From the NCBI GenBank assembly GCA_020723405.1, contig DYIY01000009.1:110427-174426 (forward strand): a stretch of 64,000 bases of DNA, read 5' to 3'. A model generated the notes under the pieces. The model had not been told where the DNA came from, ran no database searches, and saw only the letters and a program-made list of their open reading frames with translations. Made by a program: the position numbers and the translations under genes. Shown here one piece after another: positions 30,785-51,386 of this stretch (positions are counted from its first letter, which is position 1; each line of letters begins with the position of its first letter). The DNA is from Thiobacillus denitrificans. GTDB lineage: Bacteria; Pseudomonadota; Gammaproteobacteria; Burkholderiales; Thiobacillaceae.

Positions 30785-30790
30785 GGGCGC

Positions 30791-31210: not shown

Positions 31211-31426
31211 CAGTACCCGCCGGTTGCGGCATGCGCAAGCACCCGCCACCGGTTCCGCCGGTTCCCGGTCCGCAAGGACGGCAAGGAACGGGCGGGCCGG
31301 GCACCCCGCCCTCCGGCCCCCGGGTCGGGCGGAGGGTGAACCGGCCCCCCGAACCTCCCCGCCCCTGTCGCCCGAAGGGCTCGTGGGACCGGTGCCCGCC
31401 GGCCACTTCAGAAAAAGGAACAAGTC

Positions 31427-32575: not shown

Positions 32576-32577
32576 TC

Positions 32578-33063: not shown

Positions 33064-33067
33064 AAAG

Positions 33068-34285: not shown

Positions 34286-34372
34286 GGGGGGATTGACGAC
34301 CGGGATCCAGGCATCCGCCGGTGCAGAGAACCGGTCGATCCATGCCCCACGTACGAATAGAAAGACAAGGAA

Positions 34373-35407
34373 ATGATTGAAATCGATGGCGCCGCCGGGG
34401 AAGGCGGCGGCCAGATTCTGCGCACCGCCCTGACCCTGGCCATGATCACCGGCCAGGCCATCCGTATGGTGGCTATCCGTGCCCGACGGCCCAAGCCCGG
34501 TTTGCTGCGACAACACCTGACTGCGGTGGAGGCGGCGACGGCCATTTGCCGTGCCCGGGTGGAGGGGGCCGCGGTGGGCAGCCAGACCCTGGAGTTTCAT
34601 CCGGGCCCAATCCGTGGTGGCGACTATCGCTTCGCCATCGGCACCGCGGGCAGTTGCACCCTGGTGTTGCAGACCGTGTTGCCCGCCCTGTGGTTTGCCG
34701 ACGGCCCCAGCACCTTTGCGGTGAGCGGCGGCACCCACAATCCGGCCGCCCCACCGGCCGACTTTCTGCGGCGGTCCTGGCTGCCCGTGGTGGCGGCCAT
34801 GGGCGTGGACATGGAACTGGAGCTGCTGCGCCATGGTTTCTACCCCGCTGGAGGGGGCGAGATGTTGGCCCGGGTGCGCCCCGCGTCCCCCCTGACGCCC
34901 TGGCAGGCGCCCGCCCGGGCGCCTGCCGGCAAACCCCGCGCCGTCGCCGTGGTGGCGGGCGTCCCGGTGGATGTGGCGCGGCGGGAACTGGCCCGGCTCC
35001 AGCAGCACCTGGGTGACATGGAAACCGAGGTCCGCGTCCTGTCTTCCCGGGAAGGCCCCGGCAACGCGCTGCTGGTGGAAATTCCCTTGTCCGCCCACGG
35101 CGAAGTGTTCACTGGCCTTGGCGAACGGGGCCTGCCCGCCGAGACCGTGGCCGACCGGCTGGCCCGTACGGTGCGGGGCTTCCTGGACAGCGACGCCAGC
35201 GTGGGCGAGCACCTGGCCGACCAGTTGCTCCTGCCCCTGGCTTTGGCGGGGGGCGTTGGTTTCACGGCACCGGTGTTGTCGTCCCACGCCCGCACCAATA
35301 TGGCGGTGATCCAGCGCTTTTTGCCTGTGGAATTTGCGGTGGAAGAAAGGGAGGGCGTTGTGAAGGTGGGCGTGGTGCGACACGCGTTAACCGTGGCGGG
35401 GCCGTAA
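34373..35407 (+). CDS. rtcA: RNA 3'-terminal phosphate cyclase RtcA
   Basis: 344 aa. MIEIDGAAGEGGGQILRTALTLAMITGQ...LLRQHLTAVEAATAIC...DYRFAIGTAGSCTLVLQTVLPALWFA matches RtcA including the active-site His region. Confidence 0.95.
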   Translation: MIEIDGAAGEGGGQILRTALTLAMITGQAIRMVAIRARRPKPGLLRQHLTAVEAATAICRARVEGAAVGSQTLEFHPGPIRGGDYRFAIGTAGSCTLVLQTVLPALWFADGPSTFAVSGGTHNPAAPPADFLRRSWLPVVAAMGVDMELELLRHGFYPAGGGEMLARVRPASPLTPWQAPARAPAGKPRAVAVVAGVPVDVARRELARLQQHLGDMETEVRVLSSREGPGNALLVEIPLSAHGEVFTGLGERGLPAETVADRLARTVRGFLDSDASVGEHLADQLLLPLALAGGVGFTAPVLSSHARTNMAVIQRFLPVEFAVEEREGVVKVGVVRHALTVAGP

Positions 35408-35716: not shown

Positions 35717-37678
35717 ATGCCCCGCATTGCTTACTACGAAGCCAACATTCAGGATTTTTTGGTTGCTGATGAAGATGCAATTCTCGGCGCGTTGTCTATG
35801 CAACATGGCTTTGCCTTGGAACACCTGCAAAAGCATGCGTGGCAGGGCCAGATTCGGATTCTGCGCAGCATTCTTTCTCCCACCCAGTTGGGCTGGATCT
35901 ACTTCGAGTTTTCGATTCCCAGGATGGGCAAAAGGGCCGATGTTGTTTTACTGACAGGCGGCGTGGTGTTCGTCATTGAGTTCAAAGTCGGTTCGCACAG
36001 CTTTGATAGCTACGCGGTTGAACAGGCGCATGACTACGCGCTTGATCTCAAGAACTTTCACCGAGGCAGTCACAATCTCCCAATTGTTCCGATTCTGATT
36101 CCTACAGCAGCGCCGCTTCAGCCAGTACCGGCGATAAAATGGGCTGCCGACCAGGTCGCCGAACCGCTGTGCCTTTCTGCCGCAAACTTGCCTGAAGCGA
36201 TTGAGATGGCAGAAAAACAATGGTCGGCAGAACCTATTGATGCCATTGCCTGGTCGCAATCGGGCTATCAACCTACCCCCACCATCGTCGAAGCCGCTCT
36301 GGCTTTGTATCGACAGCACGATGTCAAAGAAATTACCCGATCAGAAGCAGGCGCAGACAACCTTGGTCTGACAGCAAGGCGCGTTGAGCAGATCATTGAG
36401 CATGCCAAGTCAAACAGCCGTAAAGCCATCTGCTTTATTACTGGCGTACCAGGCGCAGGAAAGACGCTAGCAGGCCTAAACATCGCGACATCGCGTGCCG
36501 AGAGACACTCTGACGAGCACGCGGTTTTCCTGTCCGGCAATGGGCCACTGGTCGATGTCCTCCGGGAGGCACTTGCTCGGGACAAGGCCGAGCGGGAGGA
36601 TATCCCGCGAACACGTGCGTACCGGGAAGTCTCAACCTTCGTGCAAAACATCCATCATTTCCGGGATGAGGCTCTCGAAAGCAGGAACCCACCGATCGAG
36701 AAGGTGGTGATATTCGATGAGGCCCAGCGGGCCTGGAACCGCGACATGGCGAGCAAGTTCATGCAGCAAAAGCGCGGGCATGCCACCTTCAATATGTCTG
36801 AGCCGGCTTTTCTCCTTGACGCGATGAACCGCCACAGAGACTGGTGTGTGGTGGTCTGTCTAATTGGCGGTGGCCAAGAGATCAATACGGGTGAGGCTGG
36901 CCTAGCCGAATGGATAACTGTGTTGCGCGACCAGCATCCAGACTGGGACGTTCATGTTTCAAGCCGTCTGGACGACCGTGATTACATCTGGGACAAAGAA
37001 CTGTCCATGGAGTTGTCGAAGGGTTCGGCACAATGGGATGAATCCCTGCACCTCGGGGTATCAATCAGGTCGTTCCGCGCGGAGGCCTTGTCTGAATTCG
37101 TTGGGCATGTGGTGGACAACAGGCCTGATCAGGCATGCGTGACCTACCAGGCGATAGCGGACAAGTACCCGATCATTCTGACGCGCAGTTTGGCGGAGGC
37201 CCGTTCTTGGCTGCAGGCCAAGTCTCGCGGCAGTGAGCGTTATGGCCTTACAGCCTCATCTGGAGCAAATCGTCTGCGACCAGATGGTATCTGGATCAAG
37301 TCAAAGATAGATGCCCCTGTATGGTTTTTGAATGATAAGACGGATGTCCGTTCGTCGTACTACCTCGAAGAAACTGCGAGTGAATTCGACATCCAGGGAC
37401 TTGAGCTTGACTGGGCCTGCGTTGGTTGGGATGCCGACTTTCGTCGCGGTGATGATGAGTGGCAATACTTCAGTTTTCGAGGCACAAAGTGGCAGCGAAT
37501 GAATTCGCCAGATCGCCAGCTTTATCTCAAGAACGCCTATCGGGTACTGCTGACCCGCGCTCGTCAAGGCATGGCGATCTTTGTTCCACCTGGCGACCCT
37601 TCCGATCCGACAAGAGCGCCGCAGGTCTATGACCGTATCTATGAGTATCTCCAGCTTTGTGGAATTTCCAGTAGTTGA
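35717..37678 (+). CDS. DUF2075-type protein: N-terminal PD-(D/E)xK-like nuclease plus SF1-helicase/Schlafen-like P-loop ATPase
   Basis: 653 aa. N-terminal GKRADVVLLTGGVVFVIEFK (D...ExK nuclease-like motif), central Walker A ITGVPGAGKT, Walker B-like VVIFDEAQ, and C-terminal RVLLTRARQGMAIFVP. GC content (about 50-52%) is clearly lower than the surroundings. Confidence 0.7.
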   Translation: MPRIAYYEANIQDFLVADEDAILGALSMQHGFALEHLQKHAWQGQIRILRSILSPTQLGWIYFEFSIPRMGKRADVVLLTGGVVFVIEFKVGSHSFDSYAVEQAHDYALDLKNFHRGSHNLPIVPILIPTAAPLQPVPAIKWAADQVAEPLCLSAANLPEAIEMAEKQWSAEPIDAIAWSQSGYQPTPTIVEAALALYRQHDVKEITRSEAGADNLGLTARRVEQIIEHAKSNSRKAICFITGVPGAGKTLAGLNIATSRAERHSDEHAVFLSGNGPLVDVLREALARDKAEREDIPRTRAYREVSTFVQNIHHFRDEALESRNPPIEKVVIFDEAQRAWNRDMASKFMQQKRGHATFNMSEPAFLLDAMNRHRDWCVVVCLIGGGQEINTGEAGLAEWITVLRDQHPDWDVHVSSRLDDRDYIWDKELSMELSKGSAQWDESLHLGVSIRSFRAEALSEFVGHVVDNRPDQACVTYQAIADKYPIILTRSLAEARSWLQAKSRGSERYGLTASSGANRLRPDGIWIKSKIDAPVWFLNDKTDVRSSYYLEETASEFDIQGLELDWACVGWDADFRRGDDEWQYFSFRGTKWQRMNSPDRQLYLKNAYRVLLTRARQGMAIFVPPGDPSDPTRAPQVYDRIYEYLQLCGISSS

Positions 37679-37896
37679 AAGCCTTTGAGGCCCCAGGGGA
37701 TCGTCCGCATTACATCGGTTGCTGACGCACATCGCCCTACCTTGTGGGGCAGCTACGAGGCGTTAGCGGTCATCCAGTCGGCCTGAACTGATCGGCCGCT
37801 CAGGCCGAGTAGTGTGAATTGACCTTCCGGCAGCTTCCGAAGTAAAGCGGCAGTTCAAGCGCCTGCCTTCCCGGAGCATCGAATGGCCGCAACTGA

Positions 37897-38076
37897 CCGA
37901 CTGCCGCAGTTCGATCTGGTGACCGAAAGCCGCCGGTGGACGATGTGCCGGTGAGGTGCCACGCAAACAGCCCGGTGGATTGGCCGTATTCCTCGTTTCA
38001 CCGTTTCGTCGCCGCCGGCATCCTGCCAGCGGATTGGGGCGCGGAAGGAAATACGGCGCGGGGTTTTGGCAAGTGA
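37897..38076 (+). pseudogene. Remnant of REP-associated tyrosine transposase (RAYT/IS200-like) C-terminus
   Basis: A 59-codon ORF fragment, bounded upstream by an in-frame TGA, encoding ...CHANSPVDWPYSSFHRFVAAGILPADWG, which resembles the conserved NPV...DWP(W/Y)SS tail of COG1943 transposases. A nested hairpin lies immediately downstream. Confidence 0.3.
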
Positions 38077-38079
38077 AGG

Positions 38080-38162
38080 CGTAGGTTGGGCTGAGGCACG
38101 AAGCCCAACAAGAGGGTGGCGCCGCCGGGCCGTTGGGCTTCCTGGCGTCAGCCCAACCTACG
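38080..38162. repeat. Nested imperfect hairpin (REP-like): outer 15-bp arms CGTAGGTTGGGCTGA/TCAGCCCAACCTACG, inner GAAGCCCAAC/GTTGGGCTTC
   Basis: Directly observed inverted repeats, upstream of the SDR gene and adjacent to the RAYT remnant. Confidence 0.6.
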
Positions 38163-38245
38163 GGGTTGACCATGGGCCGGCCGCGTGGCCGCCGCCATCC
38201 GCCGGGCGTTAACATGGGGCCACACGCATCCCTACGCAAACCCTC

Positions 38246-38935
38246 ATGACCGCCAAAACCATATTCCTCACCGGCGCCACCCGGGGCCTGGGCCGGGCCC
38301 TTACCGCCGAATTCGTCGCCCGGGGCCACAAGGTGGCGGGCTGCGGCCGCAATGCCGCCGCCATCGCCGAACTTCAGGCCGCCCATGGGCCCGGGCACGA
38401 TTTCGCCGTGCTGGACGTGGCCGATGACGCCGCCGTGGGCGCCTGGGCCCGGCGGGTGCTGGCGCGCTTCGGGCCGCCGGATCTGCTGCTCAACAATGCC
38501 GCCGTCATCAACCGCAACGCGCCGCTTTGGCAGGTGCCGGCGGCCGAGTTCGACGCCCTGGTGGACATCAACATCAAGGGGGTGGCCAACGTGATCCGCC
38601 ACGTCCTGCCCGCCATGGTGGCCCGCAGGAAGGGCGTGGTGGTGAATTTCAGCTCCGGCTGGGGCCGGGGCACCGACCCGGAAGTGGCCCCCTACTGCGC
38701 CAGCAAGTGGGCCATGGAGGGCCTGACCAAGGCCCTGGCCCAGGAGCTGCCCAAGGGCATGGCCGCCGTGCCCCTGTCGCCGGGCATCATCGACACGGAC
38801 ATGTTGCGTTCCTGCTTCGGTTGCGGCGCCCGGGATTACCCGGGCCCGGAGGAATGGGCCCGCACCGCCGCCCCCTACCTGCTGGACCTGGGGCCGGAAG
38901 ACAACGGCCGCTCCCTCACCGTGGGCGACCGTTGA
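38246..38935 (+). CDS. SDR-family oxidoreductase
   Basis: TGATRGLGRAL (TGxxxGxG), NNAA, and a catalytic YCASK (YxxxK) motif. Confidence 0.9.
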   Translation: MTAKTIFLTGATRGLGRALTAEFVARGHKVAGCGRNAAAIAELQAAHGPGHDFAVLDVADDAAVGAWARRVLARFGPPDLLLNNAAVINRNAPLWQVPAAEFDALVDINIKGVANVIRHVLPAMVARRKGVVVNFSSGWGRGTDPEVAPYCASKWAMEGLTKALAQELPKGMAAVPLSPGIIDTDMLRSCFGCGARDYPGPEEWARTAAPYLLDLGPEDNGRSLTVGDR

Positions 38936-38938
38936 TCC

Positions 38939-39490
38939 ATGCGCGTGCATCTGCTCCGCCATGGCGAGAGCGAGGCCAACGTGGGTGGCTTCATCAATGA
39001 CGATCCGGCCCGGCCGGTACACCTTACCGAGCGGGGCCGGGCCCAGGCCCGCGCGGCGGCGGAAGCCCTGGCGGGGACGGCCTTCGATCGGGTCTTCTGT
39101 TCCCGTTTTCCCCGCGCCCGGGAGACGGCGGAAGTCCTGATGGCGGGGTTGGGCCTGGACCTGCCCCTGCAGGTGGACGCCCGCCTGGACGAGCGGCGCT
39201 CGGGCCTGGACGGGCAACCGGTGGAGGCCTTCAACGGCCTGGTGCGGCCGGACCCGGTGCGCATCCGGCCGCCGGCCGGGGAGTCGTTCCTGGAGACCAT
39301 GGACCGCGTGAAGGGGTTTATGGACGAAGTGGTTGCTCACTTTCCAGAGGCCCGGGTGTTGCTGGTGAGCCATGAGAACCCCATCCAGGCGGTGTTGGCC
39401 TGGACCATGGCGCCGGAGCAGGCGGTGATTCTGCCGGTGGAGAATTGCGGGTGGCGGGTGGTGGAATGGCCGGGTGAATGTGGCCGATAG
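38939..39490 (+). CDS. Histidine phosphatase family protein (phosphoglycerate mutase-like)
   Basis: N-terminal LLRHGESEAN (RHG motif) and C-terminal ...LVSHENPIQ. Confidence 0.85.
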   Translation: MRVHLLRHGESEANVGGFINDDPARPVHLTERGRAQARAAAEALAGTAFDRVFCSRFPRARETAEVLMAGLGLDLPLQVDARLDERRSGLDGQPVEAFNGLVRPDPVRIRPPAGESFLETMDRVKGFMDEVVAHFPEARVLLVSHENPIQAVLAWTMAPEQAVILPVENCGWRVVEWPGECGR

Positions 39491-39520
39491 GGGGCGGGGG
39501 GCGGTAGGGAGGGGGCATCG

Positions 39521-39614
39521 AAATCCCCCCTAGCCCCCCTTTAAGAAAGGGGGGAACCCCCGGGCGTCATCTGGTGCTTTCCCCCCTTTCTTAAAGGGGG
39601 GTAGGGGGGGATTT
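39521..39614. repeat. REP/MITE-like element, locus A: two inverted copies of a 36-nt unit AAATCCCCCCTAGCCCCCCTTTAAGAAAGGGGGGAA
   Basis: Unit at 39521-39556 and its inverted copy at 39578-39614. Lies between convergent genes. Confidence 0.8.
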
Positions 39615-39656
39615 GCTACGGCCGGCATACCCACCCACCCCCAGCAAAGTCAGTAC

Positions 39657-39917
39657 TCACTCCCGTCGCATATGGCTCACCTTCAGCCCCAGCACCGTCC
39701 CCGCCAGCACCAGGGTGACGCCGTTGGCGAGGATCACCGGCCAGCTTTCCAGGAACAAGCCGTAGACCAGCCAGAGGGCCACCCCCAGGGTGAACAGGCT
39801 GTACATGCCCAAAGAGATGCCGGACAGGTCCCGGCTGGTCCAGGACTTGAGGGCCTGGGGGACGAAGGCGGCGGTGGTGAGGGCGGCGGCGGAGTAGCCG
39901 ATGAGGTCGGGGATCAT
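39657..39917 (-). CDS. SemiSWEET (PQ-loop) sugar transporter
   Basis: 86 aa with 3 TM segments and PQ motif FVPQALKSW. The ORF track extends it to 39983. Confidence 0.75.
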   Translation of the reverse strand: MIPDLIGYSAAALTTAAFVPQALKSWTSRDLSGISLGMYSLFTLGVALWLVYGLFLESWPVILANGVTLVLAGTVLGLKVSHMRRE

Positions 39918-39985
39918 GGGGGTATCGGTGATGGGGGTTAGGCGGGACAATTCGCGCCTTGAAGGATAAGCCCTGACGTCCACCC

Positions 39986-41602
39986 ATGTTGCGCATCACC
40001 GAAGTCAAACTCCCCCTGGACCACCCGGAAGCCGCCCTCAAGGCCGCCATCCTGGATCGCCTGGGCATCCCGGAACACGAGCTGATCCGCTACCAGATCC
40101 ACCGTCGCGGCTACGACGCCCGCAAGCGCAGCCAGATCAGCCTGGTCTATACCCTGGACGTGGAACTGACCCGGGAAGCTGCCGTGCTCAAGCGGCGCAA
40201 GGACGACAAGCACCTGGGCCCGACCCCGGACATGACCTACCGCTTCGTGGCCCGGGCGCCGGAAGGCATGAAGCACCGGCCGGTGGTGGTGGGGGCCGGT
40301 CCCTGCGGCCTGCTGGCCACCCTGATCCTGGCCCAGTCGGGCTTCCGACCCCTGCTCCTGGAACGGGGCAAGGCGGTGCGGGAACGCACCAAGGACACCT
40401 GGGGCCTGTGGCGCAAGGGGGTGCTGAACCCGGAATCCAACGTCCAGTTCGGCGAAGGCGGGGCGGGGACCTTCTCCGACGGCAAGCTCTACAGCCAGAT
40501 CAAGGATCCCCACCACCACGGCCGCAAGGTGCTGGAGGAGTTCGTGAAGGCCGGGGCGCCGGAGGAGATCCTCTATGTCAGCAAACCCCACATCGGCACC
40601 TTCAAGCTGGTGACCATGGTGGAGCACATGCGCGCCACCATCCAGGATCTGGGGGGTGAGATCCGCTTCGAGAGCCGGGTGACGGACCTGGACATCGCCG
40701 ACGGCCAGGTGCGGGGCCTGACCCTGGCCGACGGGGAGCGCATCGAAGCCGACCACGTGATCCTGGCCCTGGGCCACAGTGCCCGGGACACCTTCGCCAT
40801 GCTCCACGCCCGGGGCGTGCACATCGACCCCAAGCCCTTCTCCGTGGGCTTCCGCATCGAGCATCCCCAGTCCCTCATCGACCGCTGCCGCTTCGGCGAC
40901 ACCGCCGGCCATCCCCTGCTGGGGGCCGCCGATTACAAGCTGGTGCACCACGCCAGCACCGGCCGCACCGCCTACAGCTTCTGCATGTGCCCGGGGGGCA
41001 CGGTGGTGGCCGCCACCTCGGAGGAAGGCCGGGTGGTCACCAACGGCATGAGCCAGTATTCCCGCAACGAACGCAACGCCAACGCCGCCATCGTGGTGGA
41101 CGTGAATCCGGCGGATTTCCCCGGTGACGTGGCAGCCAACCCCCTGGCCGGCATGGAATTCCAGCGCCTGTGGGAATCCCGGGCCTTCGAAGCCGGCGGC
41201 GGCACCTATGCAGCCCCGGCCCAGAAGGTGGGGGACTTCCTGGCCGGCCGGCCCTCCACCGGCCCCGGGGCGGTGATTCCCTCCTACACCCCCGGGGTCC
41301 ACTGGACCGACCTGTCCGGCTGCCTGCCCGACTACGTCATCGCCACCATCCGCGAAGCCATCCCCGCCTTTGACCGGCAGATCCGCGGCTTCGCCATGGC
41401 GGATGCGGTGTTGACCGGGGTGGAGACCCGCACCTCGTCGCCCATCCGCATCACCCGGGGGGAGGATTTCCAGAGCCTCAACGTGCGGGGCCTGTATCCG
41501 GCCGGGGAGGGTGCGGGCTATGCCGGCGGCATCCTGTCGGCGGCGGTGGACGGGATCAAGGTGGCCGAGGCGGTGGCCTTGAGTGTGGCGGGTGGGGAAT
41601 AG
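39986..41602 (+). CDS. NAD(P)/FAD-dependent oxidoreductase (COG2509-type)
   Basis: 538 aa. Rossmann VVVGAGPCGLLATLILA; C-terminal FAD-dependent domain. Confidence 0.8.
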   Translation: MLRITEVKLPLDHPEAALKAAILDRLGIPEHELIRYQIHRRGYDARKRSQISLVYTLDVELTREAAVLKRRKDDKHLGPTPDMTYRFVARAPEGMKHRPVVVGAGPCGLLATLILAQSGFRPLLLERGKAVRERTKDTWGLWRKGVLNPESNVQFGEGGAGTFSDGKLYSQIKDPHHHGRKVLEEFVKAGAPEEILYVSKPHIGTFKLVTMVEHMRATIQDLGGEIRFESRVTDLDIADGQVRGLTLADGERIEADHVILALGHSARDTFAMLHARGVHIDPKPFSVGFRIEHPQSLIDRCRFGDTAGHPLLGAADYKLVHHASTGRTAYSFCMCPGGTVVAATSEEGRVVTNGMSQYSRNERNANAAIVVDVNPADFPGDVAANPLAGMEFQRLWESRAFEAGGGTYAAPAQKVGDFLAGRPSTGPGAVIPSYTPGVHWTDLSGCLPDYVIATIREAIPAFDRQIRGFAMADAVLTGVETRTSSPIRITRGEDFQSLNVRGLYPAGEGAGYAGGILSAAVDGIKVAEAVALSVAGGE

Positions 41603-41630
41603 GAAAGGTGGAGGGGTGGGCCGCCGGCTG

Positions 41631-41737
41631 GAATCCCCCCCAGCCCCCCTTTACGAAAGGGGGGAGAAGATTGTGGATCCCCTCGCCATTCCGCGAGCTG
41701 TTCCCCCCTTTCGTAAAGGGGGGCCAGGGGGGATTTG
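41631..41737. repeat. REP/MITE-like element, locus B (same family; inverted unit pair)
   Basis: GAATCCCCCCCAGCCCCCCTTTACGAAAGGGGGGAG at 41631-41666 and its inverted copy at 41701-41737. Confidence 0.8.
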
Positions 41738-41762
41738 AACCCCTCTCCCAATCCACACCCCC

Positions 41763-42974
41763 ATGACTCCCCACCTCATCCTCATCGGCGGCGGCCCCGC
41801 CGGCCTCATGGCCGCCGAAACCCTGCTGGCCGGCGGCGTCCAGGTGGACCTCTACGACCGCATGCCGTCCCTGGGGCGCAAGTTCCTCCTGGCCGGCCGG
41901 GGTGGCCTGAACCTGACCCATTCCGAACCCCTGCCCGATTTCCTGACCCGTTATGGCGCGCGACAGGCGGAGCTGGAACCCCTGATCGCCGCCTTCGGCC
42001 CGGCCGAACTGCGGGCCTGGGCCGTCGACCTGGGGGTGGAAACCTTCATCGGCAGCTCCGGCCGGGTGTTTCCCAAAGAGATGAAGGCGGCGCCCCTGCT
42101 GCGGGCCTGGCTGCACCGCCTGCGTCAGGCGGGGTTGCGCATCCACGCCGGGCAGCGCTGGCTGGGCTGGCAAGACAATGACCTGCTGTTCAGGGGGCCG
42201 GAAGGGAAACGGACCGTCCGGGCCGACGCGGTGATCCTGGCCCTGGGCGGGGGAAGCTGGTCGAAATTCGGCTCCGACGGGGCCTGGGTGCCCCTGCTAT
42301 CCCAGCGGGGGGTGGCGGTGGCGCCCCTGAAGCCTGCCAACTGCGGTTTCGACGTGGGCTGGAGCGAGCATTTCCGCCAGCGTTTCGCCGGCCAGCCGGT
42401 GAAGCCGGTGGTGGCCGAGTGGGCGGGCACCCGTCGCCAGGGGGAATTCGTCGTCACCGAAACCGGGGTGGAAGGCAGCCTGATCTACGCCTTCTCGGCC
42501 CCCCTGCGCGAGGCCATCACGGAACAGGGGGCCGCCGTCCTCCACCTGGACCTGATGCCGGACTGGCCTCTGGAACGCCTGCTGGGGGAAATCGCCCGGC
42601 CCCGGGGCGCCCGTTCCCTGTCCAGCCACCTGCAAAGCCGGCTGGGCCTGAAGGGGGTGAAGACCGGCCTGCTGCGGGAAGTGCTGGGCGCCGAGGCCCT
42701 GGCCGACCCGGCCCGCCTGGCCGCCGCCATCAAGGCACTGCCCCTGGTCATCCGGGCGCCCCGCCCCCTGGAGGAAGCCATCAGCAGCGCCGGCGGGGTG
42801 GACTTCGCCGGCCTGGATGAGCGGCTCATGATCCAAGCCCTGCCCGGGGTGTTCTGCGCCGGGGAGATGCTGGATTGGGAAGCCCCCACCGGGGGCTACC
42901 TGCTCACCGCCTGTTTCGCCAGCGGCAAGGCGGCGGGGCAGGGCGCCCTGGCCTGGCTGAAGGAGAAGGGCTGA
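41763..42974 (+). CDS. HI0933/BaiN-like flavoprotein (NAD(P)/FAD-dependent oxidoreductase)
   Basis: 403 aa. [15 protein letters not shown]; family-typical C-terminal ...[18 protein letters not shown]. Confidence 0.85.
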
Positions 42975-43420
42975 TGCACATCTGGGTGGACGCCGATGCC
43001 ACGCCGGCCGTGGTGAAAGACATCCTGTTCCGGGCTGCGGAGCGCAAGAAGATCCCCATGACCCTGGTGGCCAACCGCCTGCTGCGGGTGCCGCCCTCGC
43101 CCTACATCACTGCCCTGCAGGTGCCCCAGGGCTTCGACGTGGCGGACAACGAAATCGCCCGCCGGGTGCAAGCGGGGGACCTGGTCATCACCGCCGACAT
43201 CCCCCTGGCCGCCCAGGTCATCGAGGCCGGCGGCCACGCCCTGAATCCCCGGGGGGAGTTCTACAGCCAGGAGAACATCCGGGAAGCCCTGAACCTGCGG
43301 GATTTCATGACCGGCCTGCGCGACGCGGGCCTCAACAGTTCCGGCCCGCCGGCCTTTTCCCAGGCGGACCGGCAGGCCTTCGCCAACCAGTTGGACCGCT
43401 TCCTGGCGAAACTGGGCTGA
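42974..43420 (+). CDS. YaiI/DUF188 (UPF0178) family protein
   Basis: 148 aa, [24 protein letters not shown]... The ATG overlaps the upstream stop (TGATG). Confidence 0.75.
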
Positions 43421-43424
43421 GCGG

Positions 43425-43526
43425 GATTCCCCCCTTTGAAAAAGGGGGGCTAGGGGGGATTTGACGACGCTGGCCTTAGCGAGCCGGCCAAAATCCCCCT
43501 CGATCCCCCTTTACGAAAGGGGGAAG
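43425..43526. repeat. REP/MITE-like element, locus C (same family; unit order reversed and second unit degenerate)
   Basis: Inverted unit at 43425-43463 and a forward degenerate unit (5 C instead of 6) at 43491-43526. Confidence 0.75.
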
Positions 43527-43538
43527 TACGACGGGAGC

Positions 43539-44468
43539 TCAGAACGCTGCCGCCTCGATCTCCAGGTAGGCCTTGTTGATGTTGCCGCCCATCTGTTCGT
43601 CGAAGTGCTTGAGGGTTTTCCACTCGGTCAGGTCCAGCTTCTGGCGGATCTCGCCATCGGTGAGGCCAGCCTTGTAGCCGGCTTCGATGCCGGCGTAGAG
43701 GCTGGCCATGCGCTGGTGCATGGCGGCGGCGTCTGCCTTGCCCATGACCGGACCGTGGCCGGGGACGATGGTCTTCACCGGCAGGGTCTGCACCTCGGCC
43801 AGGGTGTTGATCCATTCCTTGACCTTGGCGTCGCGGAAGTTGGGGGTGATCTTGTTGACGATCACGTCGCCGGACAGCAGCACCTGGTCGTCGGGCAGCC
43901 AGATCATCAGGTCTCCCAGGGTATGGGCGGCATCGGGCACCCAGAACACCATCTTCACGCCGTGGATGACCACTTCGGTCTTGCTGCTCTTGGGATAGAC
44001 CTGGCTGGCGGGCACGGATCGGGTGTTGGGGAACTTGCGCCCGGTGAGGGATTCGATGAGGGCGATCCACTCGGGGCCGGTGGCTTCCACCAGCTTGCGG
44101 CATTCCTCGGAACTCAGCACCTTGGCGCCGGGGAAGGCGGTGTTGCCCAGGCTGTGGTCGCCGTGGTGGTGGGTGTTGATGACGTGGGTGATCGGCTTCC
44201 TGGTGAGCTTGGCCATGTTCTTCGCCAGCATGCTGCCGATCTCGTCGGTGAAGCCGGTATCCACCACGATGGCGCCGCTGTCGCCCACCAGCAGCACGCT
44301 GTTGACCATGTATCCCATGTTCTTTCTGTCCGGCAGTTCCATGGGGCCCAGCAGGGCGAAGACGCGTTCGTTGACCTTCACCACTTTGGGCTCGGGCAGT
44401 TTGGCGGGGGCGGCCAGAGACTGGAAGTTCAGGACCAGACCAAGCAGCAGGGGCAGCAGGTATTTCAT
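43539..44468 (-). CDS. MBL-fold metallo-hydrolase, secreted
   Basis: Signal peptide MKYLLPLLLGLVLN plus HxHxDH motif (NTHHHGDHS). AAGGAGA RBS. The track ORF extends to 44519. Confidence 0.85.
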   Translation of the reverse strand: MKYLLPLLLGLVLNFQSLAAPAKLPEPKVVKVNERVFALLGPMELPDRKNMGYMVNSVLLVGDSGAIVVDTGFTDEIGSMLAKNMAKLTRKPITHVINTHHHGDHSLGNTAFPGAKVLSSEECRKLVEATGPEWIALIESLTGRKFPNTRSVPASQVYPKSSKTEVVIHGVKMVFWVPDAAHTLGDLMIWLPDDQVLLSGDVIVNKITPNFRDAKVKEWINTLAEVQTLPVKTIVPGHGPVMGKADAAAMHQRMASLYAGIEAGYKAGLTDGEIRQKLDLTEWKTLKHFDEQMGGNINKAYLEIEAAAF

Positions 44469-44547
44469 GGCGGGAGTCTCCTTTCCGGGGGGCAGGCGCT
44501 GCGCCATGTTAGCCGTCACCGCAGGGAGCGCCTATGTGACGTTTGCA

Positions 44548-45264
44548 TCACCCCCCGCCGGCCAGGGCGTCCAGGTCCGCCTTCTCCAGCCAGCGCCATT
44601 GGCCCGGTCCCAGCTCTGCGGGGAGATCCAGGTTGCCCACCCGGTACCGGTGCAGGGCTTCCACCCGGTTGCCGGCGGCGGCCACCATGCGTTTCACCTG
44701 GTGGTACCTGCCCTCGGCGATGACCAGTTCCAGGCGGTGTTCGTCCAGCCGTTGGCAGGCCAGGGCCGCCACCGGCACCGGGTCATCGTGGAGCTGCACG
44801 CCGGCCAGCAGGCGCCCGGCCAGGCCGTCGTCGATGGGGTGTTTGCAGGTGACCCGATAGGTCTTGGCCACGTGGCGGCGGGGGGAGGTGTAGTGGTGGA
44901 CGAATGCGCCATCGTCGGACAGCAGCAACAGACCGGTACTGTCCTGGTCCAACCGGCCCACGGGTTGGATGCTCCGGTTCACCAGGGGCAAAGGCAGCAG
45001 GGAGAACACGGATGGATGGTGCCGGGTCTGACGGGAACACTCGTAGCCGGCCGGCTTGTGCAACATCAGGTAGGCCTTGTCGCGCCAGACCCAGGTCTGG
45101 CCGTCCACGCCCAGCAACCGTCCGGGGCCGGAAAAGGCCGCATCCGGATCAAGGCAGGGCCTGCCGTCCACCGTCACCCGGCCGGCAAGCACCTGTTCCC
45201 GGCACGCCTTGCGGCTGCCGAAGCCCTGGGATTGGAGCAGGCGGAACAGGGGCAGGGGGGTCAT
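44548..45264 (-). CDS. rsuA: Pseudouridine synthase, RsuA/RluB family
   Basis: S4 domain N-terminus and catalytic PVGRLDQDSTGLLLLSDDG. Confidence 0.85.
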   Translation of the reverse strand: MTPLPLFRLLQSQGFGSRKACREQVLAGRVTVDGRPCLDPDAAFSGPGRLLGVDGQTWVWRDKAYLMLHKPAGYECSRQTRHHPSVFSLLPLPLVNRSIQPVGRLDQDSTGLLLLSDDGAFVHHYTSPRRHVAKTYRVTCKHPIDDGLAGRLLAGVQLHDDPVPVAALACQRLDEHRLELVIAEGRYHQVKRMVAAAGNRVEALHRYRVGNLDLPAELGPGQWRWLEKADLDALAGGG

Positions 45265-45273
45265 CGCGTCACG

Positions 45274-45501
45274 TCACAGGGCCTGGCCGGCCTTGCGGCA
45301 CTCGCAATTCAGGGTGATGCCCTCGCCGGGCCGGGCGCTGCAACTGAAGGCCTGGACTCCGGCGTTGCCGCACACGGCCTGGCATTGCTGTTCCTTGTTG
45401 GCGCAGGCGTTGGCGTACTCGGGGTTGGGGGTCTCGCTGGAATTGAAGGAGATGCAGCCGGCCAGGGGCAGTGCCAGGATGAGGACAAGGAAGAATTTCA
45501 T
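45274..45501 (-). CDS. Small Cys-rich lipoprotein (75 aa)
   Basis: MKFFLVLILALPLAGC lipobox and GGAGG RBS. The track ORF extends to 45618. Confidence 0.5.
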   Translation of the reverse strand: MKFFLVLILALPLAGCISFNSSETPNPEYANACANKEQQCQAVCGNAGVQAFSCSARPGEGITLNCECRKAGQAL

Positions 45502-45676
45502 GATGGCCTCCAAGCGTGAAGAGGCCTCAAGTTTGCCAGCAAGCTCTCGTAAATGAAGGAGATTGATCACAGTGTACGCAGGGTCCGTCGCGCCCGGTGG
45601 ATCAAAAACCTTGATCATGCTGGCCTGGGCGCGGCGGGATAATTTTCAATTTTGTGACACGAAGAAGGTGAACCCC

Positions 45677-46762
45677 ATGGTCATGCGTAAGACAGCCAGC
45701 GAAACCACGCCCGCCCCCCGTCGTCGCCGTTCCCCCGGAAAACCCGTTGTTGCTGCCGACGCCACGGTGCCGCCCGTTGCCGAAACGGTGGTGGAAGTCC
45801 CGGCCGAGGCCGGGGTGGTGGCCATTCCCCAAACCCCGCCCGGCCACGACGCCAACCCGGCGGCTGTGGCGGAAATCGAGGCTGTGAGCCACGAACCGGT
45901 GGCCATGGCAGTGGCCCACGCCCCCCATGGCAGCAGCGAGGAAAGTGATTACGCGGCCCTGCCCGCCAGCTATCCCTATCGGACCCGCCTGCGCCGGGCG
46001 GATTACGAAGCCCAGAAGGAAAAGCTGCAGATCGAGCTGCTCAAGGTGCAGAGCTGGGTGAAGGAGACGGGCCAGAAGGTCGTCATCCTCTTCGAGGGAC
46101 GGGACGCGGCGGGCAAGGGCGGCACCATCAAGCGCTACATGGAGCATCTCAATCCCCGGGGCGCCCGGGTGGTGGCCCTGGACAAGCCCTCGGAACGGGA
46201 GCGGGGCCAGTGGTATTTCCAGCGCTACATCCAACACCTGCCCACCAGCGGCGAAATGGTCTTCTTCGACCGCTCCTGGTACAACCGGGCCGGGGTGGAA
46301 CGGGTGATGGGCTTCTGCTCGCCCCACGAATACCTGGAGTTCATGCGCCAGACACCGGAGTTCGAGCGCATGCTGGCCAACGCCGGGGTGCGCCTCTACA
46401 AGTTCTGGTTCTCGGTGAGCCGGGAGGAGCAGTTGCGCCGCTTCATCTCCCGCCGGGACGATCCCCTCAAACACTGGAAGCTTTCGCCCATCGACATCAA
46501 GTCCCTGGACATGTGGGACCAATACACCGATGCCAAGAACGCCATGTTCTTCCACACCGACACGGCGGACGCCCCCTGGGTGGTGATCAAGTCGGACGAC
46601 AAGAAGCGGGCCCGCCTCAATTGCATGCGCCACTTCCTGCACAGCCTGCCCTACCCGGGCAAGGACGAGCACGTGGCCCACGCCCCGGATCCCCTGCTGG
46701 TGGGCACGGCCCAGCAGGTGCTGGCGGGAGAGGAGAACCTGCTGCCCCGCTTCACCACCTGA
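45677..46762 (+). CDS. ppk2: Polyphosphate kinase 2
   Basis: PPK2 Walker A FEGRDAAGKGG, Walker B DRSWYNRAGVE and lid motifs. AAGGTG RBS. Confidence 0.9.
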   Translation: MVMRKTASETTPAPRRRRSPGKPVVAADATVPPVAETVVEVPAEAGVVAIPQTPPGHDANPAAVAEIEAVSHEPVAMAVAHAPHGSSEESDYAALPASYPYRTRLRRADYEAQKEKLQIELLKVQSWVKETGQKVVILFEGRDAAGKGGTIKRYMEHLNPRGARVVALDKPSERERGQWYFQRYIQHLPTSGEMVFFDRSWYNRAGVERVMGFCSPHEYLEFMRQTPEFERMLANAGVRLYKFWFSVSREEQLRRFISRRDDPLKHWKLSPIDIKSLDMWDQYTDAKNAMFFHTDTADAPWVVIKSDDKKRARLNCMRHFLHSLPYPGKDEHVAHAPDPLLVGTAQQVLAGEENLLPRFTT

Positions 46763-46774
46763 GGGCCGGCGGGC

Positions 46775-47347
46775 TCAGCGGACTTCCCAGGTGCCCGGCG
46801 CGGTCTGGCAGGCTTCGCCCTGGCGGGTCTTGCCGGCCACGGTCAGTTCGAAGGTGCGGCAGGGCAGGCCGTTCCGGGTGCTGCCGCGCAGGGGCTTGAG
46901 GCGGTAGGCAGTACCGGCGTCGTCCTTCCAGGACACCTTCTGGCCGTCCCGGGCCAGTTCCAGGGCGTGGCCGATGCAGGCTGCGTCGTTGCGGTCCATG
47001 TCGCGCCCCACCTGGGCGCCGAGGAGGGCGCCCAGGGCGGTGCCCACCACGATGGCCACCTTGTTGCCGTCGCCCTTGCCGATCTGGCTGCCCACGGCGC
47101 CCCCCACCACGGCCCCCAGCACCGCGCCCACCGCTTCCCGGTGGCAGGTGCCGGCGGTGATGCCGTAGTCCTGATCCCATTTCTTGCCGGTATAGCCCTG
47201 GTAGGACGGGTCGTGCTGCTTGCGCCAGCCGTGGGCCGGGGCATGGGAGGGCGGGGTGGCCAGGGCGGCCGCCTGGCAGGCGAGCAACAGGGCGGCCAGC
47301 AGGCTACGGGTTCCGAAGCGCGGAAGGGTCATGGCGGAGCTCCTCAT
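46775..47347 (-). CDS. Glycine-zipper / 17-kDa-antigen-like outer-membrane lipoprotein
   Basis: Signal peptide plus lipobox (LLLACQ) and a glycine-zipper stretch (VGAVLGAVVGGAVGSQIG...VGTALGALLGAQVG). Confidence 0.6.
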   Translation of the reverse strand: MRSSAMTLPRFGTRSLLAALLLACQAAALATPPSHAPAHGWRKQHDPSYQGYTGKKWDQDYGITAGTCHREAVGAVLGAVVGGAVGSQIGKGDGNKVAIVVGTALGALLGAQVGRDMDRNDAACIGHALELARDGQKVSWKDDAGTAYRLKPLRGSTRNGLPCRTFELTVAGKTRQGEACQTAPGTWEVR

Positions 47348-47351
47348 CTTG

Positions 47352-47879
47352 TCAAAGGAAAAAGCCCAGGATACCCAGGATCATCACCACCATGCCCGCA
47401 GTGACGATGGTGCTGTCCGGTTCGTGGAGGTGCTGGCGCACTTCCAGTTCCATCCGGTCCAGCTTGATGTCGGGCTCGGCGGCGGGGCTGATTTCCACAT
47501 GATAGGTGCCGGCCTGGACCACCTGGAAGAAAAGCAGGTGCTCCTTGAAGGCCGGGTTGGAGTCGGCCACGTTCTTCACCCCCAGGCTGATGTTGAGGGG
47601 TTTGGCCGCCTGGCCGTCCCGGAACAGGGTGACGGCGTAGCCATCCTTGGGGGGCTGGCTCTCGTGCATGTTGGGGGAGAAGCTGCCGGTGGCGTGGAGA
47701 ATCAGGCCCACCGGCGCCATGTCGGGGCTGAGCCTGAAATCGGCCGACCGCCAGCCCGTTCCGGCCCGGTCGAGTTTCAGCAGGGCAGCCTGGGAGCCGG
47801 TGTAGAACTTGGCATAGACCCAGTAGGCGGGACCGGCGATGAGGCCGGCGATGAGCAGCAGCAGGGAGAGGTTCTTCAT
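47352..47879 (-). CDS. Hypothetical membrane-anchored protein
   Basis: N- and C-terminal TM segments. Overlaps the hybrid HK stop. No family recognised. Confidence 0.5.
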   Translation of the reverse strand: MKNLSLLLLIAGLIAGPAYWVYAKFYTGSQAALLKLDRAGTGWRSADFRLSPDMAPVGLILHATGSFSPNMHESQPPKDGYAVTLFRDGQAAKPLNISLGVKNVADSNPAFKEHLLFFQVVQAGTYHVEISPAAEPDIKLDRMELEVRQHLHEPDSTIVTAGMVVMILGILGFFL

Positions 47880-50495: not shown

Positions 50496-50513
50496 CTCCC
50501 GATGCGTGTGTGC

Positions 50514-51365: not shown

Positions 51366-51386
51366 CTGGGTCGGAAGGGGGCGATT

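Follow-up and report, generated by a model that had tools for sequence, protein, structure and literature searches.

Six repeat units in three inverted pairs as probable gene-less members of the BoxC/PIT class of three-block repeats, with a link to DUF559 genes

Six 36-nt units of the form AAAT-C6-N3-C6TTT-N3-AAAG6, read from the sequence as three inverted pairs (Table 1), are probably three gene-less copies of a three-block repeat of the BoxC/PIT/intrastrand-triplex-motif class, which has a DUF559-linked module. We rate the repeats of the window (the whole 64-kb stretch of DNA analysed) as ordinary representatives of a repeat class already on record; the DUF559 link is new and testable. The first-pass annotation had reported six copies in three inverted pairs; all of them were found, with ends agreeing within 1-2 nt. 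Its intergenic placement was also confirmed, since all three pairs lie between genes and E1 and E3 separate convergent ones. The density that it gave, one per about 2 kb, applies inside the cluster, whereas no further unit copies were found in the remaining 60 kb of the window. Matches to the 21-nt core CCCCCCTTTMNGAAAGGGGGG with at most three mismatches were confined to the six sites (12 hits over both strands) in the window, compared with 0.07 expected by shuffling, and 12 was reached in none of 100 shuffles. The outer arm G6-N3-G6ATTT was likewise restricted to the six unit sites in the window.

Table 1. Positions, sequences and neighbouring genes of the three inverted pairs and their six units
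Feature	Position	Strand or arrangement	Subtype	Sequence	Neighbouring genes
E1	39521-39614	head-to-head (-> 22-nt spacer <-)	A + A	36-nt arms, 92% complementary	convergent: His_Phos_1 (stop 39490) / PQ-loop gene (minus strand, stop about 39657)
Unit 1 (E1)	39521-39556	+		AAATCCCCCC-TAG-CCCCCCTTT-AAG-AAAGGGGGG-AA	
Unit 2 (E1)	39579-39614	-		reverse complement AAATCCCCCCC-TA-CCCCCCTTT-AAG-AAAGGGGGG-AA	
E2	41631-41736	head-to-head (-> 34-nt spacer <-)	A + A		co-directional: FAD-dependent gene (stop 41602) / HI0933-like gene (start 41763); 160-nt gap
Unit 3 (E2)	41631-41666	+		GAATCCCCCCC-AG-CCCCCCTTT-ACG-AAAGGGGGG-AG	
Unit 4 (E2)	41701-41736	-		reverse complement AAATCCCCCC-TGG-CCCCCCTTT-ACG-AAAGGGGGG-AA	
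E3	43427-43526	tail-to-tail (<-A, 28-nt spacer, B->)		minus-strand reading: (C5TTTcgtAAAG5-ATCGA-G5ATTTT)(spacer)(AAATC6-TAG-C6TTTTTCAAAG6)	convergent: DUF188 (stop 43420) / metallo-beta-lactamase-fold gene (stop 43539)
Unit 5 (E3)	43427-43462	-	A	reverse complement AAATCCCCCC-TAG-CCCCCCTTT-TTC-AAAGGGGGG-AA	
Unit 6 (E3)	43491-43526	+	B	AAATCCCCC-TCGAT-CCCCCTTT-ACG-AAAGGGGG-AAG; 5/5/5 runs, 5-nt internal loop	

The G-rich strand of a unit has the order C6T3 - loop - A3G6 - loop - G6(A)T3, in which blocks 1 and 2 pair as a 9-bp hairpin and block 3 mirrors block 2. The internal C6/G6 hairpin described at first pass is therefore present, whereas the extra C6 plus AAAT, a mirror-symmetric third block, had been overlooked. 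Because it mirrors block 2, block 3 could add G.GC, A.AT and T.AT triads onto the hairpin; alternatively, within an inverted pair, it may pair with the AAATC6 arm of the partner. For the TM repeats, no triplex was detected either in vivo or in duplex DNA (Holder et al. 2015, PMC4666352). Run lengths co-varied over the three blocks (6-6-6 in 88 distinct units and 5-5-5 in 44), which could reflect subfamily ancestry. Units split into subtypes A and B, and A+B heterodimers made up 47 of the 76 pairs, compared with about 32% expected. Head-to-head pairs were as frequent as tail-to-tail (E3-type) pairs, and the spacers of the latter (n = 37) ranged from 13 to 82 nt, with 36 of them at 13-47 nt. As RNA, the window pairs folded much better than shuffles (-57 to -89 kcal/mol, z -4.1 to -9.5), and so they did as DNA (-32 to -44 kcal/mol, z -5.5 to -9.3); E3 as ssDNA was predicted to form three hairpins in succession.

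The family had been presented as novel, but its design, A and B types, A+B pairs, intergenic location and local instability were already published (PMC4666352). BoxC, PIT elements and TM_ECO repeats are known from E. coli and other Proteobacteria (Bergler 1992; Hoyne 2000; Holder et al. 2015, PMC4666352), and similar G/C-rich motifs are reported to abound in cyanobacteria, Neisseria and Pseudomonas (PMC4666352). Like the window family, they have a unit of ~35 nt composed of a C-stem, a 3-6-nt loop, a G-stem, a 3-nt loop and a mirrored G-stem, lie strictly between genes on either strand, join types A and B as A+B inverted pairs, occupy loci that vary more among close strains, and come without an associated transposase. 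However, the blocks of the window family are homopolymeric C6/G6 runs extended by T3/A3, whereas those of TM_ECO are CCCTCNCCC/GGGNGAGGG; therefore, the published TM_ECO sequence pattern is unmatched and the likeness is one of architecture only. The range differs as well: the exact unit was found in more than 10 phyla, among the matches listed, and in Mu-like phage contigs, whereas TM_ECO was reported from 262 genomes of Proteobacteria, with none detected on a phage or plasmid (PMC4666352). Holder et al. 2015 (PMC4666352) mentions neither ycjD nor an endonuclease.

The pattern C6N3C6TTTN3AAAG6 matched 82 stretches in viral contigs and at least 120 in species-representative genomes. The taxa among the matches listed included Desulfobacterota, Nitrospirota, Nitrospinota, Methylomirabilota, Beta-/Gammaproteobacteria, Planctomycetota, Acidobacteriota, Deinococcota, Omnitrophota, Bacillota and others, with GC content spanning 37 to 72%. 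AAT, which the pattern does not demand, directly preceded the C-run in 224 of the 238 matches listed. The proposal of a dispersed, hairpin-forming intergenic repeat family was thus borne out, and a purely local duplication is contradicted by the abundance of the unit outside the window. A family copy was also seen in frame within the hsdS central linker in Gallionellales and Nitrosomonas loci; Rickettsia palindromic elements (RPE) are similarly in-frame insertions in Rickettsia genes. Unlike RPE and MITE-like in-frame elements, the window copies are all intergenic, and the sequences are unrelated.

Comparison of orthologous intergenic regions, which the first-pass annotation had proposed as a check, showed that the copies have inserted between genes and are gained and lost over short time scales. 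A close relative (L297), 98.1-99.66% identical, keeps E1 (at 7760-7852, with SNPs and a G7/G6 indel) and E2 (at 9869-9974) and lacks E3, the 121-bp block 43412-43532 that holds it corresponding to 937 bp. The difference there is a replacement, not a clean insertion. E2 is missing from the ortholog operon of L204 (78% identity), whose two genes overlap at 4989, and the E3 site of L204 is an 11-nt gap. At the E2 site, a third relative, L206, has one degenerate unit, arranged differently. Of 80 homologous loci from metagenomes, 78 lack the unit. Vertical conservation as coding sequence is contradicted by these unit-free orthologous sites. Moreover, a Logan contig (L001) begins within E2 and ends within E3. 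No target-site duplication was visible at E1-E3, and their spacers had no match beyond the orthologous copy. The unmatched spacers, together with E1 and E2 being A+A, unlike the canonical A+B, make cut-and-paste of a whole ~100-bp element unlikely.

The same comparison bears on the idea that the elements are selected by the host as bidirectional terminators, mRNA 3'-end stabilisers or host-factor binding sites regulating the flanking genes. E1-E3 all lie at gene 3' ends, the predicted RNA hairpins of the pairs are extremely stable, L297 retains E1 and E2, and many phage contigs carry the unit a short way 5' of genes. However, the elements are missing at those 78 orthologous loci, a 99%-identical genome can do without E3, E2 separates two genes that overlap in L204, the genes flanking the elements are unrelated in function, and the units matched no Rfam family. 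The terminator role suggested at first pass is not supported: the stems are not followed by a T-run, a terminator scan gave one marginal 5-bp match, inside E1, and E2 lies within an operon. The E. coli counterparts are described, in a statement of PMC4666352 that cites its reference 41, as having neither terminator nor promoter activity, and they show no gene-class bias (PMC4666352). Host selection is thus quite unlikely to explain the elements, and the units are possible mRNA stabilisers or a possible recombination substrate.

The gene-bearing form of the family carries a gene for a 119-aa DUF559 (Vsr-fold, YcjD-like) putative nuclease. Such genes were bracketed by units or lineage-specific equivalents in about 15 independent contexts, with the start codon adjoining one unit (GGGGGATTT-ATG) and the stop codon inside or just before another (AAT CCC CCC TAG). 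Units abutted all four DUF559 genes in motif-ascertained loci. The same held for every locus of the 82-93%-identity clade that was ascertained by protein, across three genomic contexts. Three more loci, picked blind (Thiothrix, Pseudomonas gcc21 and Leptothrix), also had units, and homologs at 40-49% identity had lineage-specific equivalents (Deinococcus, Azospirillum, two cyanobacterial plasmids, N. gonorrhoeae and E. coli ycjD). In a sequence-agnostic architecture test, 10 of 13 DUF559 loci were positive, compared with a background of 0.0006 per 175-nt window. Over-called protein termini turned out to be translated repeat sequence. The protein belongs to Pfam PF04480, and its nearest solved structure is 3HRL (DUF559, N. 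gonorrhoeae; E = 1.4e-18). The nuclease motif D52, E63, D65, H69 was invariant; to our knowledge, DUF559 proteins have no demonstrated activity.

Among ~200 loci, DUF559 was the sole recurrent gene family abutting units; the other recurrent families near units (ORFs within 1.5 kb) were Mu-like phage genes and an ABC transporter, and the genes between neighbouring close units were ordinary ones. No DUF559 gene was found within the 64-kb window. Nevertheless, the minus strand of E3 has the order, orientation and subtypes of the two ends that bracket DUF559 in other genomes (L294 and L155), lacking the gene, and over AAATC6TAGC6TTTTTCAAAG6 unit 5 equals the unit overlapping the DUF559 3' end in these two.

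These loci also bear on the REPIN and MITE readings. The units resemble REPINs (PMC3337134, PMC3116915) in being intergenic palindromes of ~36 nt whose inverted doublets span 94-106 bp and have short spacers. REPIN-RAYT systems further share with this family their dispersal between genes, one or few small nuclease-fold genes per genome flanked by cognate repeats, and a repeat sequence that changes together with the clade to which the associated gene belongs. However, that gene is an HUH Y1 transposase, whereas the one here encodes a PD-(D/E)XK/Vsr-fold DUF559 protein of ~119 aa. The GTAG or CGTC tag (PMC3733652) is absent from the unit ends of E1-E3, and in the ~200 loci no RAYT/Y1_Tnp gene lay between neighbouring units or recurred within 1.5 kb (RAYT being single-copy per genome). 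Furthermore, REPs have nothing equivalent to the mirrored third block, and REPIN/RAYT systems are inherited vertically and specific to a lineage, whereas near-identical units here cross phyla. The earlier suggestion of RAYT substrates is therefore not supported, and it is most improbable that a RAYT from another part of the genome copies these units as classical REP/REPIN doublets.

Hardly more credible are MITEs of a conventional insertion sequence, with the units as terminal inverted repeats for a DDE transposase in trans. E3-type pairs do present inverted ends of ~35 bp around a short core, and presence/absence polymorphism among close relatives and assembly breaks at the elements fit as well. 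Besides the lack of a visible target-site duplication, no transposase was found between inverted units at IS-like distances, where only DUF559 occurred (at 342-366 nt). Head-to-head pairs, whose 'ends' face outwards, equal tail-to-tail pairs in frequency, spacers are unconserved among copies, including inside the window, and the sole IS seen (IS3 family, L316) had landed inside a unit instead of having units as its ends.

DUF559 might instead be a free-standing homing-type endonuclease for which the triplex-motif repeats, already in place, are safe landing sites, the repeats themselves arising and spreading through replication slippage or repair at non-B DNA with no enzyme of their own; we regard this as unlikely but worth weighing. 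Vsr-fold homing endonucleases are known (I-Bth0305I; PMC3239194, PMC2677866), and those of the I-Bth0305I type (Vsr-like, EDxHD), like 3HRL, share the fold superfamily of the unit-associated protein and are small selfish nuclease genes inside their own target. They reside, however, in group I introns or inteins at unique gene targets, whereas here a free-standing DUF559 gene sits within a palindromic repeat that is multicopy. Nitrosomonadales, Sulfuricellaceae and Desulfurivibrionaceae have DUF559 proteins that are 82-93% identical, in differing contexts, and E. coli ycjD replaces the eefRABCD operon in position (PMC12817139). The geometry around DUF559 varies too: (<- gene ->) at most loci, (-> gene <-) in Thiothrix, and downstream only in Pseudomonas gcc21. 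On the other hand, even where the proteins diverge by 40-90%, the units incorporate both the translation start (the G-run serving as Shine-Dalgarno, the ATG abutting ATTT) and the stop codon, and each DUF559 clade has its own version of the repeat sequence, indicating long co-evolution and not opportunistic insertion. In the E. coli sample, 37 ycjD-positive genomes had 15-36 TM places each (median 23) and 22 ycjD-negative genomes 1-19 (median 10.5; Mann-Whitney p = 5e-10, uncorrected for phylogeny), a correlation that is confounded by phylogroup. The highest TM counts were confined to ycjD-positive genomes, whereas the up to 19 TMs kept in ycjD-negative lineages suit a parasite and indicate that the nuclease is not required for persistence.

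Under the preferred reading of gene-less copies, the window elements would be non-autonomous relatives of the DUF559 module, E3 representing both module ends minus the gene. A DUF559 putative nuclease, presumably encoded in another part of the genome, would be the likeliest partner acting in trans, an assignment to which we give close to an even chance. Structure-dependent nicking and repair would then spread, homogenise or destabilise the units. Locally, the elements are presumably mostly passengers that contribute very stable hairpins to transcripts; E2 would uncouple the FAD-gene/HI0933 gene pair, and the elements may mark a stretch prone to rearrangement. For the repeat class as a whole, DUF559 may be the enzyme behind these repeats.

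The 36-nt repeat unit occurs six times in the window, as three inverted pairs (E1, E2 and E3), and the sequence at all three stretches agrees with the first-pass annotation. A search with a 21-nt core, allowing up to three mismatches, returned these six sites only, its 12 two-strand matches comparing with 0.07 expected in 64 kb. E1 and E2 are head-to-head pairs and E3 is tail-to-tail. The intergenic placement described earlier was confirmed for 6/6 units, as was the position of two pairs, E1 and E3, between convergent genes. On the G-rich strand, each of the six units reads C5-6TTT / N3 / AAAG5-6 / N2-5 / G5-7ATTT; in the opposite reading, from the AAAT-C6 side, the units start with AAAT or GAAT and end with G6AA. 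In folding models limited to Watson-Crick and GU pairs, the pairs folded well beyond their shuffles (RNA z-scores from -4.1 to -9.5), and likewise as DNA.

Repeat units, gene contexts and rtc genes in the window
Feature	Position	Strand	Description
Unit 1	39521-39556	+	E1
Unit 2	39579-39614	-	E1
Unit 3	41631-41666	+	E2
Unit 4	41701-41736	-	E2
Unit 5	43427-43462	-	E3
Unit 6	43491-43526	+	E3
E1 gene context			His_Phos_1 / convergent PQ-loop gene
E2 gene context			FAD-dependent gene / co-directional HI0933-like flavoprotein gene
E3 gene context			DUF188 / convergent metallo-beta-lactamase-fold gene
RtcB paralog	27632-28840	-	73-77% nt identity to other RtcB paralog
RtcB paralog	about 33150-34285	+	73-77% nt identity to other RtcB paralog
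RtcR	29195-30784	-	rtc locus

The suggestion that the hairpins serve as terminators is unsupported because the stems lack a T-run: in a terminator consensus scan of 38800-44700, the units continued as AA/GA or ATTTG, and the 6 sites found (3.0 expected) included only one marginal 5-bp stem within E1. No Rfam family matched E1-E3 at the gathering threshold; at E values up to 10 only miRNA hairpin models were matched, at less than half of their thresholds, and these were discarded as spurious. The sole Rfam match at threshold in the window, at 31113-31182, was to a tRNA-like RNA at 31112-31183 (Rfam tRNA, 40.6 bits; weak YrlA-like match, 22.9 bits) with an abnormal anticodon loop, reported by ARAGORN as 'tRNA-???'. 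It lies between rtcR and the operon of an rtc locus (27632-35407) that holds two diverged, inverted RtcB paralogs and also encodes Band_7/SPFH, a treble-clef zinc-finger protein and RtcA.

The window was compared with L297, a contig of GCA_040752475.1, to which it is 98.1% identical over 38225-43411 and 99.66% identical over 43533-52158. L297 carries E1 and E2, with a few SNPs and one G7/G6 length change, and 937 bp of low-GC DNA bearing a PEP-CTERM-type gene stand in place of the 121-bp block that contains E3; for rearrangement of unit loci, this comparison (E3 replaced, E1 and E2 kept) covers one close relative. In the relative L204 (78% amino-acid identity), one base is shared by the FAD-dependent and HI0933-like genes, and the next gene starts 11 nt after the DUF188 gene, so that L204 shows the E2 and E3 sites unoccupied. 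Another relative, L206, carries at the E2 site a unit that is degenerate and arranged differently, and 78 of 80 homologous metagenome loci contain no unit. The comparison of orthologous regions proposed in the first-pass annotation reveals presence/absence polymorphism, for E3 in L297 and for E2 and E3 in L204, and the window copies behave as insertions.

Homology between the window and L297 stops at 38225, 1.3 kb left of E1; given this break and the E3 replacement, the E1-E3 cluster lies between two strain-variable points. To the left of the break (36000-38225), the window has a DUF2075/Schlafen-type helicase (54-58% GC); the same side of L297 carries DUF5691/AAA_5/DUF5682/VWA genes together with a YoeB/YefM pair. 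The sole contig found with the exact HI0933-like protein, L001 (Logan SRR13164373_9242), corresponds to window 41637-43454 (1818 bp); because it begins within E2 and ends within E3, the pattern that repeats breaking an assembly would give, short-read assemblies break at the units. E1, E2 and E3 have spacers that resemble neither one another nor spacers elsewhere, orthologous L297 giving the only match above shuffles. What is conserved is therefore the 36-nt unit rather than an element with a set length of 100 bp, and a fixed ~100-bp MITE was rejected on the same grounds.

A database pattern search showed that the repeat is not a local duplication, since the unit pattern recurs in many other genomes and viral contigs. 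The pattern C6-N3-C6TTT-N3-AAAG6 matched 82 stretches of IMG/VR contigs and at least 120 stretches in one-genome-per-species contigs. Hosts among the matches listed include Desulfobacterota, Nitrospirota, Nitrospinota, Methylomirabilota, Beta- and Gammaproteobacteria, Planctomycetota, Acidobacteriota, Deinococcota, Omnitrophota, Bacillota, Binatia and others, with GC contents from 37 to 72%. The trinucleotide AAT, which was not part of the query, stands directly 5' of the first C-run in 224/238 matches listed. The unit family is thus neither local nor lineage-specific. Among the matches listed, copies occur as compact 45-nt palindromes, 59 head-to-head pairs (38 with 9-147 nt spacers and 21 compact), 37 tail-to-tail pairs (spacers of 13-82 nt, 36/37 at 13-47 nt), short tandem runs and singletons. 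Loop symmetry between partner units is modest (13/38 pairs vs 7.7% at random). Upstream of DUF559 at one shared locus in two Nitrosomonas-type assemblies (L298 and L300, 2880-3000), one has the compact 45-nt palindrome and the other a long form with ~50 extra nt, a difference consistent with deletion between the two inner hairpins.

Two palindromic units inverted around a short spacer, as in these head-to-head and tail-to-tail pairs, also characterize REP/REPIN elements, but the window units have no conserved GTAG or CGTC tetranucleotide at their ends, a tag that is included in the REP definition (PMC3733652). Clustering of the 2023 ORFs that lie no more than 1.5 kb from a unit (~200 loci listed) yielded, as families that recur, Mu-like phage genes (in viral contigs), an ABC transporter and DUF559, a Vsr-fold, YcjD-like nuclease family (PF04480). 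In Pfam scans, the genes between neighbouring units at 0.3-2.6 kb were ordinary (carbamoyltransferase, GGDEF, sigma-54 activator and similar). With the tag absent and phage Mu, ABC transporter, DUF559 and housekeeping genes as neighbours in these ~200 contig stretches (Pfam scan of some ORFs), the idea that the elements are RAYT substrates found no support. A MITE of a DDE insertion sequence found no support either: no direct repeat flanks E1-E3, no target-site duplication is visible, the relatives available for comparison being highly diverged (L204, 78% amino-acid identity) or carrying a replacement at the site (L297), and DUF559 alone recurs as a gene between inverted units. Taken together, the RAYT, IS-MITE and terminator readings of the window elements are not supported.

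Several further associations were dropped. Unit-bearing IMG/VR contigs are often Mu-like (Portal_Mu, GemA, Gam and Gp36), and one 6.2-kb Mu-like viral contig, L077 (IMGVR_UViG_3300035670_001258, with which L017 was grouped), has 15 hairpin cores in 6 kb, some in arrays of 3-5 units in tandem, and also bears a DUF559 gene. The association with Mu-like phages (Portal_Mu, GemA and Gam near units) was attributed to the sampling of prophages from hosts rich in the repeat. The ABC transporter beside units in 5 loci partly reflects orthology (L155 and L294), and an apparent gene between outward-facing units 342 nt apart (L056) proved to be a 448-bp tandem duplication with no gene.

The general unit of the family, on the G-rich strand, is C6T3 / N3 / A3G6 / N3 / G6(A)T3. 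Blocks 1 and 2 are predicted to form the C6/G6 hairpin noted in the first-pass annotation. Block 3 mirrors block 2, reading backwards as G6, A, T, T over G6, A, A, A, and this facing of G, A, T, T with G, A, A, A explains the conserved ATTT/AAAT; block 3 over block 2 could form the triads expected where an intrastrand triplex of the purine-motif type is made. Across 275 distinct units among the matches listed, the run lengths of the blocks change together, as 6-6-6 or 5-5-5, and two subtypes were distinguished: A, with a 1-3-nt internal loop and 6-6-6 runs, and B, with a 5-nt loop such as TCGAT and 5-5-5 runs. A+B heterodimers make up 47/76 pairs among the matches listed, compared with ~32% expected; of the three window pairs, only E3 is of this mixed type, E1 and E2 both being A+A.

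This architecture is that of the published BoxC/PIT/TM class of intrastrand-triplex-motif repeats (PMC4666352), so the description of the family as novel was not borne out. TM repeats are strictly intergenic, have unit types A and B that are always joined as A with B in inverted pairs, lie at loci rearranged more among E. coli strains and have no reported promoter or terminator activity (PMC4666352). Many G/C-rich motifs are also found in cyanobacteria and Neisseria, and Holder et al. did not see the triplex in duplex DNA or in vivo (PMC4666352). In the same work, the most thorough TM study, a transposase, integrase or other mobility-related gene was never found beside the repeats (PMC4666352). 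The three-block architecture is present in 6/6 window units, and both orientations, intergenic position and A+B inverted pairs are also shared by the C6/G6 family. However, the published TM_ECO pattern, CCCTCNCCC-N3-6-GGGNGAGGG-N3-GGGNGAGGG (PMC4666352), is unmatched by the window units, which are homopolymer runs with T3/A3 extensions; the C6/G6 units thus share the architectural class but form a sequence family separate from TM_ECO. E1-E3 are ordinary gene-less copies of a known, if poorly understood, repeat class, not a novel REP/MITE family.

DUF559 was the only recurrent family abutting units (~200 loci listed; Pfam scan of some ORFs and contig stretches), and 4/4 DUF559 genes in motif-ascertained loci were directly abutted by them. 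The converse, protein-ascertained sample was a 119-aa DUF559 clade of 82-93% identity (5725 homologs at E up to 1e-10, mostly on short contigs). At every locus read in this clade, the ATG lies 0-8 nt after ...C5TTTgaaAAAG5-atyga-G5ATTT, the stop codon lies within, or ~20 nt or less from, AAATC6-tag-C6TTTttcAAAG6, and a complete (-> <-) element is often present on each side. Three contexts were represented: hsdR-hsdS, SUI1-ABC transporter gene and Pyr_redox gene-UvrD gene. Units also adjoin 3/3 blind-chosen DUF559 genes (Thiothrix, Pseudomonas sp. gcc21 and Leptothrix). In the last (L316, Leptothrix sp. BB-3, CM132699.1, 5440-6760), an IS3-family element (HTH_Tnp_1 and rve) lies within the -> unit just 3' of DUF559 and parts AAATCCCCCC from the remainder of the unit.

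Additionally, DUF559 homologs at 40-49% identity (Deinococcus, Azospirillum, Picosynechococcus pAQ6, Pseudanabaena and N. gonorrhoeae) have lineage-specific three-block C/G-run repeats at corresponding positions. A regular expression for the architecture only was matched at 10/13 DUF559 loci, compared with 0.0006 per 175-nt background window. Overall, ~15 independent contexts, in hosts as far apart as E. coli, cyanobacteria and Deinococcus, have a DUF559 gene embedded in such repeats, and over-called protein termini translate the repeats (e.g., ...SPFEKGDRGGFDF-MERY and ...NPP*). Four Vsr-like residues (D52, E63, D65 and H69) are invariant, and the nearest solved structure, 3HRL, is uncharacterised. 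PADLOC and NCBIfam gave no functional name for the clade. No paper tying DUF559 to repeats was found in the searchable literature, where the partnership appears to be undescribed; searches with unit sequences or peptides (GGGGGGATTT, the inner hairpins and PPLKKGG) gave no relevant literature, a VarioGold match being to an unrelated tRNA attachment site.

In Gallionellales and Nitrosomonas type I R-M operons (L284-L293 and L298-L312), small modules, namely PIN toxin-antitoxin pairs and the DUF559 module, are stacked in the hsdR/hsdS gap, which looks like a cassette-insertion hotspot. PIN-bearing loci have a duplicated 54-72-aa hsdR C-terminal fragment (EcoEI_R_C) after each PIN pair, and where the surroundings of the DUF559 gene were read, copies of a 25-nt direct repeat, TTGAATGAGGTRTTGGTGRCRTGAT, flank the DUF559 module. 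In type I systems, the spacer between the hsdS target-recognition domains sets the gap in the recognition sequence. In L284 (~4240-4350) and also L308 (~4285-4400), a head-to-head element of the C6/G6 family lies in frame in the central linker of hsdS, where the protein reads ...KSPSVPLLQRGKPTSAATSSPLSSSLAHPPLKKGGRGDLKPK..., and lengthens the spacer between the two domains.

E. coli offers a cross-check. In K-12 (NC_000913.3, 1351040-1351760; L323), the stop codon of ycjD (DUF559) lies within the loop of a BoxC/TM-like hairpin, and published TM_ECO no. 9 (1351204-1351239) lies 168 bp downstream of ycjD. A combined ycjD and TM query of 5426 complete genomes found ycjD in 3377 of them, and an even-step sample of the ranking (59 genomes) was compared. 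The 37 genomes with ycjD had 15-36 TM places (median 23), whereas the 22 without it had 1-19 (median 10.5), a difference (Mann-Whitney p = 5e-10) that is confounded by phylogroup. The TM counts in Table S1 of Holder et al. show the same split (K-12 23, 55989 29 and W 30 vs CFT073 2, UTI89 1 and IHE3034 1; PMC4666352). Phylogroups A, B1 and C have ycjD in place of the eefRABCD operon according to a 2026 study (PMC12817139). Because of this confounding, and because lineages without ycjD keep up to 19 TMs, the correlation is suggestive only.

In the proposed module, the ATG of DUF559 would abut a <- unit (G5-6ATTT; GGGGGATTT) and its stop codon would lie in, or within ~20 nt of, a -> unit (AAATC6...). 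A tblastn search with four DUF559 proteins found no DUF559 gene in the window. On the minus strand, E3 reads [B unit, ATCGA loop][28 nt][A unit AAATC6TAGC6TTTTTCAAAG6], that is, the two ends of a DUF559 module with order, orientation and subtypes agreeing, and its A unit is identical to the counterpart in Sulfurimicrobium lacus and Sulfuricella. With both ends present, 28 nt between them and no DUF559, E3 is at most a gene-less derivative of the module. The most likely account of the window elements is that structure-prone, semi-selfish three-block repeats are inserted into intergenic DNA, with DUF559 as their probable partner. That a DUF559 nuclease encoded elsewhere is the partner of the window repeats is judged close to an even chance, if slightly short of it. 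Rather more tentatively, DUF559 proteins might be the dedicated nucleases of BoxC/triplex-motif-type repeats, each clade recognising its own three-block repeat, sitting in one copy and driving the spread, homogenisation or instability of gene-less copies, including E1-E3.

Locally, E1-E3 are markers of an apparently rearrangement-prone stretch and very stable predicted hairpins within or after transcripts. To our knowledge, 30 years of cataloguing BoxC/PIT/TM repeats have brought no enzyme, mobility mechanism or function, a mechanism having been lacking since 1992. If true, the DUF559-repeat pairing would be a second analogue of RAYT-REPIN, PD-(D/E)XK-based and spread across many phyla. If functional, it would give a role to DUF559, with >24,000 sequence clusters and thousands of YcjD relatives, provide a mechanism for BoxC/PIT/TM repeats and account for strain-to-strain differences in repeat load such as those between E. 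coli with and without ycjD.
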